Assembly: GCA_042217545.1 (NCBI GenBank)
Contig: JBDGSM010000040.1
Location: 1-8,483, forward strand
Source: Candidatus Nanohalobium sp.
Lineage (GTDB): Archaea; Nanohalarchaeota; Nanosalinia; Nanosalinales; Nanosalinaceae
Direction: 5' to 3'
Length of the DNA stretch: 8,483 bases
Shown here: piece by piece, positions 6,001 through 8,483 of the stretch
Position numbering within the stretch: position 1 is the stretch's first letter
Layout: the number at the start of each line of letters is the position of its first letter
Made by a program: the position numbers

Positions 6001-8483
6001 GGAAGCCCCAGGAAATCCGGCACCCTGGAAAAAGCAAGGACTACGAAGCCTAGCATTATCATCTGGAAAGAAACCCGGACATCAAGGGCCTTGAAGCTGA
6101 GACGTGCGTAACTCTTCTGCTTCTCCCGCACTATCTGAAGTATGAAAAGACCTGAAAGCAGGATAAGAGGGAGGGTCATGTACGCCCCGATCATCGTCGC
6201 CAAGGCCTTCCACCTCCGGCCAGCCCGTTCAACAGGAAGAAAAACAGCATGTAAAGCAGCAACGCAGTGTCAAAGGCGTAACCTCTCAAAACCTGTTTTC
6301 CAAGGCCTGTCAGGACTGTTCCCGTGAAGACCGCTAGCGAGCCCAGGAATGCAAGGCCGAAGACCAGCGTGGTCTTCTCCTTGTTCAGCTTCAGGAAAGT
6401 AGTGGACCGGTACTCGTTCCCGACCCAACCCTCCTGGAACTCCCAGACAAGGTAGGCCGTGAACAAAAGGCCTAGAGTCACGAAAGCGTCTTCAATCATT
6501 AATTAATGAAATAAAAGTAGAGAAATATGAAAGCTTTGGAAAGAAAAAGGCCTTTCCTATAGGTCGACGTCAAGCTCTTCCAGTTCCTCGGGAGTTACAC
6601 GCTGGAAAAGCGATTCCTCGTCGACGGTCGACATCTCAACGTTCTCCGTCTCGATATCGTCCTCACCTTCCTTCAAAGCCCTCACAGCAAGCTCCATGGC
6701 CTCTTCCACGGAAAGATCCTCGCTCCAGTTCTCCTCAAGGTACTCATCCGCGTCTTCACCGCCCTTACCGATCGCGATAGCGTTCCACTCGGAAAGCGTA
6801 CCGGAAGGATCAGTATGGTAAACCTTGGTCTCACCGTCCTTCACACCGCCGGAGATCGTGGAAAGACCGTAAGGCCTTACACCTCCGTACTGCGTGAACT
6901 GCTGGCAACGGTCGGCGATAAATTTCGCAAGCACAGAAGTCGGGATGTCCTCATCGTAAGTCATCACATGCTTCTGCGCCTCGTTCCTCGCCTCTTCCAC
7001 GAGCGTTCTTCCGTCGGCTACGAGGCCTGAGGTCGCGACCCCGATATGCTCGTCGATCTTGAACACTTTCTCAGGATTCCTGACCTGAAGATCAGGGATA
7101 TTCCTCGTCGCCGCTAACACGACACCGTCCTCGTAGACAATGCCGAGAGCTGTAGCACCTTTTTTAACTGCTTCTTTAGCGTACTCGACCTGGAACAGAC
7201 GTCCATCAGGAGAGAAAATCGTCGCTCCACGGTCGTACTGCTGCTGTTGCTGATTAGTCATCTGCATAATTTAATTGAGCCTCCGTTCGTTTATACAAAA
7301 GAAAGGCCTTGGAAAGCTTAAAAGGGTTACAGAACTTACCTAACATAATGCGGTTCGATCTCCACACCCACACAACATACAGCGACGGCAGCCTCATGTA
7401 CCTGATGACCCGCGCTGCACAACAGCAAGGCCTCAACGAAATAGGTTTTGCAGACCACTGCAACGTATCAAACCGCGAAACGATGAAACAGACCAAGTAC
7501 AGGAATGGATTCAACCTCGACCAGACATACAAACGCAGAAGAAAAGCAATCCAGAAAATCAGGGAAGAATACGACATCAAAATTTATGACGCGGTGGAAA
7601 TGGACTACGAACCGCAAGACGGAAAACGAATAAAGGCCTTCCTGGAAAAAGCAGAGTTCGACTACTCCCTCGGAAGCATACACTACCTCGACAACGTCAA
7701 CGTCCACGTAAAAAGCCACTTCAAAAACAAGACGAAGAAAACAAAACGAAAACTCGTCCAGAAATACTTCAAAAAACTGGAGAAAATGATACGCACCGAA
7801 CAGTTCGACATAGTCTCCCACATCGACGTATACAAAAGAAACCCCGCACTACAGGGCTACGCAGACACTGAAAACTACGAAAAAATAGCAGAGGCCTTCA
7901 AAGACTCCAGAACAATCCCCGAAATCAACGCAGGAAGAGCACTCAGAGGCCTAGAAGAACTACACCCAACAAAAGAATTCCGGGAAATCCTAATCGAAAA
8001 AGGAGTCGAATTCACAGTCGGAACAGACAGCCACAAACCCCAGGACATACAAAAACTAAACAAGCACCTCAACCAGAAACTCCAGGAACTCGACATAACA
8101 CCAGTAAAGCCTCACAACCTCCGCAACTGAAAAGAAAGCCTTTTTCAAAATACACCTTCAAACCCAATTAACGTAGGATGAAAAGGCCTAGCGCCTTAGA
8201 CCAACTGGTTACGCTCAGGTCGGCACGCAAGGCATGGTTCAACTGAACCATGCATTCAGATGATCAAGCTCGAAACTCCTCAGGAGTTTCTGGCAATCAG
8301 AAACTCCAAAGAATTTCGGGCTCTCTACGTGAGTTTGTGGTCCACTAGCTCAGGGGTTAGAGCGCCGTCCTTATACGGACACCAGCACAGAAAAGCACTT
8401 GCCTGAAAAAAGGCCTGTGCCGGTCGCCTACTACTTCATCCGAAGATAGGCGGTGGTCCCGGGTTCGAATCCCGGGTGGACCA

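Follow-up and report, generated by a model that had tools for sequence, protein, structure and literature searches.

The gene at positions 8339-8483 (+ strand) of the DNA analysed here very probably specifies the only AUA-decoding tRNA of Candidatus Nanohalobium sp., an isoleucine tRNA whose UAU anticodon is written in the genome, whose precursor would be spliced and charged as set out below, and which would replace the agmatidine route. AUA and AUG constitute the sole codon pair that requires purine-wobble resolution, and each domain has its own solution; most archaea read AUA with a tRNA-Ile2(CAU) and TiaS, by way of agmatidine. That AUA would here be decoded by tRNA-Ile(UAU) without TiaS is well supported at the level of the genome, because the gene is conserved, the TiaS domains are absent, AUA behaves as an isoleucine codon, and the tRNA census of a closed genome (G052) points the same way. 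In the mechanism that we infer, the precursor would be cut at two bulges by the splicing endonuclease EndA, joined by RtcB and then furnished with CCA; the spliced tRNA would be charged by IleRS through A35, U36 and A73; U34, modified or not, would pair with the A of AUA; and the tRNA-Ile2(CAU)-TiaS route would have been lost before the phylum diversified. The universal, structured intron may have some share in avoiding misreading of AUG.

The window, by which is meant the whole 8,483-nucleotide stretch, belongs to the genome designated G000; the organism is a salt-lake nano-archaeon. The window contains a tRNA gene that is complete, has the anticodon TAT and carries a 72-nt intron separating position 37 from position 38. 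A preliminary description had claimed an intron-bearing tRNA-Ile(UAU) with its intron at the canonical position, and Rfam, ARAGORN and direct reading of the sequence agree on it (Table 1). The Rfam tRNA model (RF00005, gathering cut-off 29) matches the gene over the full model with 51.8 bits (E 4.3e-9), leaving 73 bases unaligned past the anticodon loop. With introns allowed, the ARAGORN call is tRNA-Ile(tat) i(39,72), placed at C35 [8338,8484], a range one base too long at both ends (at the 3' end because the contig stops at 8483); the 3' end previously assigned thus stands, and the start moves from 8338 to 8339. Default ARAGORN, which does not allow introns, makes no tRNA-Ile(UAU) call in the window. 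Automatic annotation is thereby corrected: this gene escapes the default tRNA finder, and several of the tRNAs with introns in these genomes carry wrong names. The 5' exon of 37 nt, ending in CTTATA, is nearly invariant among 26 aligned genes, and the CTTATA of the anticodon loop is strictly so (26 of 26, together with all 20 further loci). The 3' exon of 36 nt ends with the discriminator A73 as the last base of the contig, CCA being neither encoded nor assembled. Across the 26 genes, pairing is 100% in the acceptor (7-bp), D, anticodon and T helices, with 21 of 21 cloverleaf pairs kept in every one of them and compensatory changes in three acceptor pairs; A35, U36, A37 and A73 do not vary.

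Table 1. Parts of the tRNA-Ile(UAU) gene, in window coordinates
Feature	Coordinates	Strand	Basis
5' exon, tRNA positions 1-37 (acceptor 5' strand, D arm, anticodon-stem 5' strand, loop)	8339..8375	+	Rfam alignment, ARAGORN -i, exon parsing
Anticodon TAT (UAU), positions 34-36, cognate to AUA	8372..8374	+	Rfam, ARAGORN, direct sequence reading
Intron, 72 nt, canonical 37/38	8376..8447	+	Rfam, ARAGORN, direct sequence reading
Intron bases 2-5, GGAC, complementary to exon G29-C32 (GUCC)	8377..8380	+	near-invariant alignment columns, RNAalifold, MFE
Internal intron hairpin: long stem, small apical GCCU...AGGC hairpin	8381..8424	+	MFE fold, alignment
Intron 3' end: GAAG + AT	8442..8447	+	pair counts on alignment
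3' exon, positions 38-73: A38, anticodon-stem 3' strand GGCGG, variable loop, T arm, acceptor 3' strand, A73	8448..8483	+	

The splice sites were judged against the hBHBh' motif, in which an intron at 37/38 is bounded by two 3-nt bulges with a 4-bp helix between them and helices on either flank. The GAAG close to the end of the intron forms the lower strand of the predicted central helix, pairing with C32-U34, and the terminal AT together with A38 makes up the predicted 3' bulge that contains the 3' splice site. The pairs of this central (H) helix are kept in 26, 26, 25 and 17 of 26 sequences; for the inner helix h', 76% of cells are paired. The window gene retains three of the four central pairs; the fourth is an A35-G mismatch, so that its BHB motif is a relaxed one. 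The enzymes that splicing would call upon are encoded in the same genome: EndA (PF01974) scores 88.6 bits at C11:1801-2082, and the RtcB ligase 455 bits on contig C44. Introns are present in many tRNAs of G000 and of a closed genome of the same genus (G040). By sequence reading, about 5 of the 38 tRNAs of G052 keep one; its tRNA-Ile(UAU) is intron-bearing and its tRNA-Ile(GAU) is intron-less.

The intron also has a structure of its own. It begins invariantly with (C/A)GGAC; the GGAC is conserved in three families, and the motif recurs in 20 further loci. RNAalifold pairs this GGAC with the exon across the 26 aligned genes, with 25 GC and 1 GU and otherwise without change, and in the lowest-energy unconstrained fold of the window gene the resulting exon-intron helix (GGAC/GUCC) replaces the anticodon stem, a point that, like the mismatch in the central helix, counts against the preferred reading. 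In the hairpin that follows, all seven stem pairs have changed on both sides in the alignment, with 95% of cells paired. No Rfam family matches within the intron at E<=1, and it is not recognisable as a C/D or H/ACA guide.

The distribution of the gene was examined in 70 genomes, the order-level (Nanosalinales) and phylum-level sets being identical. The gene could be read directly in 49 of them (G000, 28 relatives and a further 20 in families f1, f4 and f5), which represent three of the five families of the phylum, and every copy has CTTATA and an intron. A DNA search with the gene finds a match in 59 of the 70, including 26 of the 28 high-quality genomes. The 11 genomes with no match in that search, which count against the preferred reading, include G001 (93% complete), the sole genome of family f2, and G009 (91%); a pattern search of 10 of the 11 yields 2-mismatch hits alone, no more than the background given by a reversed-pattern control. 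The earlier count of 27 ARAGORN calls of tRNA-Ile(tat) with an intron among the loci of 29 relatives was reproduced, and the remaining two loci are a miscalled tRNA-Ile(UAU) (L008) and a fragment (L028). Of the intron lengths then given, 40 to 128 nt, the lower bound falls, since it came from an ARAGORN misparse of L012, whose intron is 56 nt by exon alignment; by ARAGORN's own figures the 49 genes span 37 to 129 nt. A scan of public genomes with a 16-base anticodon-arm/intron pattern, itself nearly palindromic and hence of limited value, found at least nine tRNA-bearing loci among the 80 matches listed: six with nanohaloarchaeal titles, two labelled 'uncultured archaeon', and L266.

The absence of TiaS is defined here by two Pfam domain models. 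PF08489 (the FLD) has no match in G000 at E<=10 and one marginal match over the cut-off among the 70 genomes, with four archaeal controls positive, counts that bear out the statement of the preliminary description that the genome has no TiaS. The single match, in G047, was rejected as a genuine TiaS: it is a 189-aa acidic protein scoring 23 bits, with no TCKD or other TiaS domain. The earlier caveat that the search had covered a single TiaS domain is answered by PF22641 (TCKD, the kinase-like catalytic domain), which likewise has no match in G000 at E<=10 and none in the 70 genomes at E<=0.01, the four archaeal controls again being positive. G000 is 92% complete; the 70 genomes include eight single-contig ones, which are TiaS-negative as well. 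With the gene read in 49 genomes and both domains missing throughout, the extension of the claim to the Nanosalinales is supported in this set.

The UAU tRNA might be real and yet redundant, with an undetected tRNA-Ile2(CAU) and a diverged TiaS still reading AUA mainly through agmatidine. We consider this improbable. The full tRNA census comes from one closed genome, G052, for which ARAGORN makes 39 tRNA calls, among them one GAU and one UAU isoleucine tRNA and just two CAU tRNAs, of which one resembles an initiator (A1:U72, GGG/CCC) and the other, with a 69-nt intron, an elongator; scans of G052 reveal no third CAU arm. Together with the lack of both TiaS domains in 70 of 70 genomes, this argues against a hidden agmatidine route, as do the exons of the UAU gene, whose near-invariance in all 49 genomes read fits an essential, non-redundant role. 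What lends the redundant arrangement some credit is the state of tRNA detection in these genomes, together with the use of domain HMMs only in looking for TiaS. G000 itself has one complete CAU tRNA, initiator-like, and the 3' exon of an elongator tRNA-Met at the edge of contig C40. In G040, ARAGORN, the Rfam tRNA model and a custom covariance model (R1) applied to the whole genome all failed to find an elongator tRNA-Met, as did regex scans anchored on the T arm, D arm, anticodon arm and acceptor stem; BLAST islands conserved with G000 and fuzzy matching with the tRNA-Met exons of G052 and G000 disclosed neither that tRNA nor a further CAU tRNA. Additional CAU calls that ARAGORN makes in G040 at lowered thresholds proved false. 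That so essential a tRNA is missed in a closed genome means that tRNA detection here is incomplete, and the frequent miscalling of intron-bearing tRNAs by ARAGORN adds to the concern. The warning that a tRNA-Ile2(CAU) might lie hidden accordingly stands for G000 and G040.

Less credible still is the notion that the UAU tRNA is no isoleucine tRNA at all, being charged with methionine, for example (which would reassign AUA), or else a non-functional relic. What speaks for it is the resemblance of the mature sequence, which in G052 is closer to tRNA-Val(GAC) (77% identity) and elongator tRNA-Met (75%) than to tRNA-Ile(GAU) (67%). The last of these figures is too low for a recent origin by duplication of tRNA-Ile(GAU), which was rejected. 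The codon itself speaks against the idea. AUA accounts for 4470 of 12733 isoleucine codons in G000 (35%; 20.4 per 1000 codons) and is found in 539 of 558 long ORFs; the strong constraint on the exons, the compensatory changes in acceptor pairs and the invariance of A35, U36, A37 and A73 likewise tell against it. At 2056 AUA sites in 322 ORF pairs between G000 and G052, the aligned residue is I in 45.5%, V in 20.7%, L in 16.6% and M in 3.1%; in the same comparison, ATT sites align with I in 48.4% and ATG sites with M in 62.1%. By this measure AUA behaves as isoleucine, its substitution profile being like that of ATT and unlike that of ATG. The preferred reading, that tRNA-Ile(UAU) decodes AUA as isoleucine, is in keeping with these substitutions.

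What the intron does is a separate question, and here we lean slightly towards a neutral passenger, one of many tRNA introns, playing no part in anticodon function. Intron-bearing tRNAs are common in G000 and G040, the length of this intron varies widely, it matches no Rfam family, and the enzyme family that makes the intron-dependent anticodon pseudouridines of eukaryotes, Pus1/TruA (PF01416), is absent from G000 and from five closed relatives, with 13 of 14 controls positive. A neutral intron is harder to square with its retention in all 49 genes, including that of G052, a genome in which so few tRNAs keep theirs, and with the conservation of GGAC in three families and the seven compensatory pairs of the hairpin. 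Pairing of GGAC beside the anticodon, together with the covarying hairpin, suggests that the precursor may hold U34 and U36 in a particular fold. It is conceivable, if doubtful, that the intron helps to tell AUA from AUG, whether through an intron-dependent modification of U34 or U36 or by shielding these bases from the Elp3 pathway, which G000 encodes. With Pus1/TruA absent, an intron-dependent step would have to rely on a different enzyme; Pus7/TruD is present, and U34-A35-U36-A37-A38 presumably fits the Pus7 target pattern. The literature examined yielded no published experimental answer, for archaea, to how a U34 tRNA avoids AUG; a conserved, structured intron offers a handle on the problem.

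The arrangement as such has been described before in Nanoarchaeum, Korarchaeum and ARMAN; the Nanohalarchaeota are a further phylum, and with them a fourth archaeal lineage joins the short list of TiaS-less exceptions. The outcome is shared with the canonical archaeal pairing of tRNA-Ile2(CAU) and TiaS, in that AUA is read as isoleucine and AUG is not; the means differ, the genomic anticodon being TAT instead of CAT and neither TiaS domain being found. [quoted passage not shown] There the trait is known from single species, whereas here it is phylum-wide in a 70-genome set. The Korarchaeum gene also bears an intron and is a near copy of that organism's own tRNA-Ile(GAU), according to PMC6000648; the nanohaloarchaeal tRNA stands apart from its tRNA-Ile(GAU), as the identities above indicate, and nearer to tRNA-Val(GAC) and elongator tRNA-Met. 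ARMAN-2, -4 and -5, ultrasmall acidophilic archaea, lack TiaS and tRNA-Ile(CAU) and have tRNA-Ile(UAU), as portrayed in PMC3239211 and PMC12397907, and in ARMAN-2 the organism's own endonuclease cleaves, in vitro, a 25-nt intron that lies at 37/38 in a strict hBHBh' motif. In comparison, the intron in the window is 72 nt (some relatives have longer ones) and has a conserved hairpin, an invariant GGAC and a relaxed BHB of three central pairs out of four. Mycoplasma mobile likewise reads AUA with a tRNA-Ile2(UAU), its C34-modifying enzyme having been lost and its U34 being unmodified (PMC3575796); it differs in being a bacterium, in having lost TilS rather than TiaS, and in having no intron. The eukaryotic tRNA-Ile(UAU) is similar in its anticodon, in an intron at 37/38 and in the task of separating AUA from AUG, and its pseudouridines at 34 and 36 are made by Pus1 in an intron-dependent manner (PMC4090602); the nanohaloarchaeal genomes depart from it in having no Pus1/TruA-family gene. 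If the intron does contribute to discrimination here, this, taken with the introns that the UAU tRNAs of Korarchaeum, ARMAN-2 and eukaryotes are reported to carry, would suggest a general association of UAU anticodons with introns, ancient or convergent.

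The end of contig C35 of the source genome (G000; 1.03 Mb, 82 contigs, 92% complete), the entire contig being the window, carries a tRNA-Ile gene with anticodon UAU, interrupted by a 72-nt intron. The Rfam tRNA model matches it end to end (51.8 bits, E 4.3e-9), leaving 73 bases after the anticodon loop unaligned, and ARAGORN with introns on calls tRNA-Ile(tat) i(39,72); run by default, without introns, it finds no tRNA in the window. Direct reading agrees with Rfam and ARAGORN on the gene that the preliminary description had proposed. CCA is neither encoded nor assembled at its 3' end, where the contig stops at A73. 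The contigs of this genome often break within or right at tRNA genes (C35, C14, C42, C54, C64, C40, C59), which apparently act as break points in the assembly; C59 opens with part of a second copy of the initiator tRNA. The remainder of the window holds an unremarkable archaeal cluster of exosome and proteasome genes.

Coordinates of the tRNA-Ile(UAU) gene and of other features
Feature	Sequence	Position	Strand	Remarks
tRNA-Ile(UAU) gene	window	8339-8483	+	last 145 bases; Rfam tRNA, ARAGORN with introns, direct reading
5' exon	window	8339-8375	+	ends CTTATA (C32 to A37); direct reading
Anticodon TAT	window	8372-8374	+	direct reading
Intron, 72 nt	window	8376-8447	+	direct reading
3' exon	window	8448-8483	+	discriminator A73 is last base of contig; direct reading
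Exosome/proteasome cluster	window	2-8130		SNase-like nuclease, SepF, prefoldin, two RNase PH-type subunits, Rrp4, SBDS, proteasome alpha subunit, PHP-domain protein
Elongator tRNA-Met 3' exon	G000 C40	18-53		
T arm and acceptor-end-like pieces	G000 C40	53-200		two, each ending TTCCCA
RtcB match	G000 C44	7-2724	-	
FLD match	L001 (G047:C58)	62-631	-	
Elongator tRNA-Met	G052:C1	313659-313800		
Intron-bearing tRNAs misnamed by ARAGORN	G040:C1; G000 C53	144566-144721, 2593-2743, 889118-889244, 34568-34729, 35971-36076; 8744-8851		identified by eye
Introns opening near TGGTTAC(G/C)	G040:C1; G000 C17, C29, C58, C67	144678, 2702, 889200, 726511		Thr, Ala, Glu tRNAs
Extra tRNA 3' ends; nested tRNA-Tyr	G040:C1	726317-726344, 909317-909348, 843083-843300		

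The codon that this tRNA would serve is in heavy use. AUA accounts for 4470 of the 12733 isoleucine codons (35%) in 558 long ORFs of the source genome, at 20.4 per 1000 codons, and occurs in 539 of these ORFs; its usage is similar in two closed genomes, one of the same genus (G040) and one of a relative (G052). At the 2056 AUA sites in 322 ORF pairs between the source genome and G052, the aligned G052 residue is I in 45.5%, V in 20.7%, L in 16.6% and M in 3.1%, a profile like that of ATT sites (I 48.4%, M 3.1%); at ATG sites M reaches 62.1%. Usage and alignment profile together establish AUA as a common isoleucine sense codon that needs a dedicated decoder.

The usual archaeal decoder, a tRNA-Ile2(CAU) given agmatidine by TiaS, seems to lack its enzyme here. 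Neither the FLD domain of TiaS (PF08489) nor its catalytic domain (PF22641) has a match in the source genome at E<=10, and PF22641 is absent at E<=0.01 from all 70 genomes of the order, eight of which are single-contig assemblies 95-99% complete; in each domain search all four archaeal controls are positive. Widening the search to the phylum added no genome to these 70, so that order and phylum coincide within this set. PF08489 passes its cut-off in one genome, that of the relative G047: the match (23 bits) is to a protein of 189 aa, strongly acidic and encoded on a 2-kb contig, and its size, its score and the lack of any other TiaS domain, the catalytic one included, led to its rejection as TiaS. 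The claim that TiaS is missing from the genome and the order had been made from one domain family; the second family answers that caveat, and the claim stands.

As to tRNA-Ile2(CAU) itself, the source genome has one complete CAU tRNA (C11), marked as initiator-type by A1:U72 and three G-C anticodon-stem pairs, and the beginning of C40 holds the 3' exon of an elongator tRNA-Met, directly followed by two more tRNA-like pieces. The earlier caveat, that a tRNA-Ile2(CAU) may have escaped a bin with a single CAU tRNA assembled, stands for the source genome. The closed relative G052 (1,046,959 bp, few tRNA introns) has two CAU tRNAs only, an initiator-like one and, interrupted by a 69-nt intron, an elongator-like one. 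Since one is initiator-like, the other must be elongator tRNA-Met; scans of this genome found no third CAU arm, and its isoleucine tRNAs are tRNA-Ile(GAU) and tRNA-Ile(UAU). The 69-nt intron holds a TGATGA box, reminiscent of C/D-box guide introns in the tRNAs of haloarchaea; its gene follows tRNA-Val(GAC) at a distance of 110 bp.

Five kinds of search did not find elongator tRNA-Met in G040:C1 (1,118,574 bp; loci L035-L091), whose copy may be strongly disrupted or split, or absent from the assembled sequence. ARAGORN misnames several intron-bearing tRNAs in this genome: it reports Ala for Thr(CGU), Cys for Ala(UGC), Ser for Thr(UGU), and Pro and Leu for two tRNA-Gln genes whose introns lie in the D arm. 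For this genus the tRNA census is thus incomplete, and the probable absence of tRNA-Ile2(CAU) is argued from the G052 census together with the absence of TiaS. In one of the two tRNA-Gln genes the anticodon loop is also interrupted, by a second intron. Introns of Thr, Ala and Glu tRNAs share their opening motif, which points to a set of related introns that may have moved from one tRNA gene to another. G040 also has extra tRNA 3' ends (T arm and acceptor strand) downstream of tRNA-Ile(UAU) and tRNA-Lys(UUU), and a tRNA-Tyr gene nested between a duplicated 5' piece and a 3' piece; they may mark past integration events or intron losses.

A DNA search matches the UAU gene in 59 of the 70 genomes, and in 26 of the 28 that are of high quality. 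At 27 of 29 relatives' loci ARAGORN calls Ile(tat) with an intron, which reproduces the preliminary count, as the FLD searches did for PF08489 (none in the source genome, 1/70 overall); the other two are the same gene miscalled (L008) and a fragment (L028). At 20 further loci, families f4 and f5 included, the anticodon arm, CTTATA and the start of the 3' exon are identical throughout, the intron invariably begins (C/A)GGAC, and 16 are correctly named by ARAGORN. The gene was read in 49 genomes, the source genome among them, and contains an intron in all 49. Nine of the 11 genomes with no match are less than 90% complete, the exceptions being G001 (93%, sole genome of family f2) and G009 (91%); a pattern search of 10 of the 11 gave hits only at control level. 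Among the matches listed in a pattern scan of public genomes, at least nine loci carry the gene, six under nanohaloarchaeal titles, two under 'uncultured archaeon', the ninth being L266.

Of the first 29 genes read, those of the source genome and 28 relatives, 26 were aligned, excluding L013 (truncated at a contig end) and L015 and L033 (introns of 117-128 nt). The exons are nearly invariant: all 21 cloverleaf pairs are kept in all 26 genes, with compensatory changes at three acceptor pairs. The canonical splicing motif is present, yet not strict. In its central helix C32-A35 face the four intron bases preceding the last two, and the pairs are kept in 26, 26, 25 and 17 genes (the window's fourth is an A-G mismatch), and 76% of inner-helix cells are paired. 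The intron hairpin shows both-sided changes at 7/7 pairs; the intron itself has no match in Rfam. Its bases 2-5 (GGAC) are near-invariant and complementary to exon G29-C32, and this exon-intron helix is preferred to the anticodon stem by RNAalifold as well as by the minimum-energy fold of the window (-63.7 kcal/mol, z -4.1).

The gene would be transcribed, its precursor cut at the two bulges by EndA, the exons ligated by RtcB, CCA added, and the spliced tRNA charged by IleRS to read AUA. The splicing endonuclease and RtcB are both encoded in the source genome; the RtcB match falls in two parts ~1.1 kb apart inside one 958-aa open frame, which would fit a large insertion in frame, for instance an intein. 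Also encoded is Elp3 (569 bits), which makes cm5U-type wobble uridines. TruD/Pus7 is found in 5/5 genomes, and U34-A35-U36-A37-A38 presumably fits a Pus7 target pattern. The Pus1/TruA family, reported to form intron-dependent pseudouridines 34 and 36 in yeast tRNA-Ile(UAU) (PMC4090602), was found neither in the source genome nor in five closed relatives.

The tRNA-Ile(UAU) observation is thus confirmed, and its interpretation, AUA reading without TiaS, is supported. A literature search of sources other than subscription journals and supplements found no published report of the nanohaloarchaeal case (DPANN with TiaS gave only an unrelated paper). Known cases include N. equitans and K. cryptofilum, in which tRNA-Ile(UAU) replaces tRNA-Ile2(CAU) (PMC6000648; 10.1101/614032), archaea without tiaS that carry a TAT tDNA-Ile and M. 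mobile, with an unmodified U34 in its AUA-reading tRNA (PMC3575796), and ARMAN-2, -4 and -5, which have tRNA-Ile(UAU) and neither TiaS nor tRNA-Ile(CAU), the intron of the ARMAN-2 tRNA, 25 nt long and located at 37/38, being cleaved in vitro (PMC3239211; PMC12397907). This arrangement now extends to a whole phylum. The intron in every copy read, its invariant exon-pairing 5' end and its covarying hairpin go beyond the literature examined, and raise the testable question of whether the intron matters in distinguishing AUA from AUG. The Korarchaeum tRNA-Ile(UAU) is reportedly a near copy of tRNA-Ile(GAU) (PMC6000648), whereas the nanohaloarchaeal one is no recent copy of it, since its mature form in G052 is only 67% identical to tRNA-Ile(GAU), below tRNA-Val(GAC) (77%) and elongator tRNA-Met (75%).
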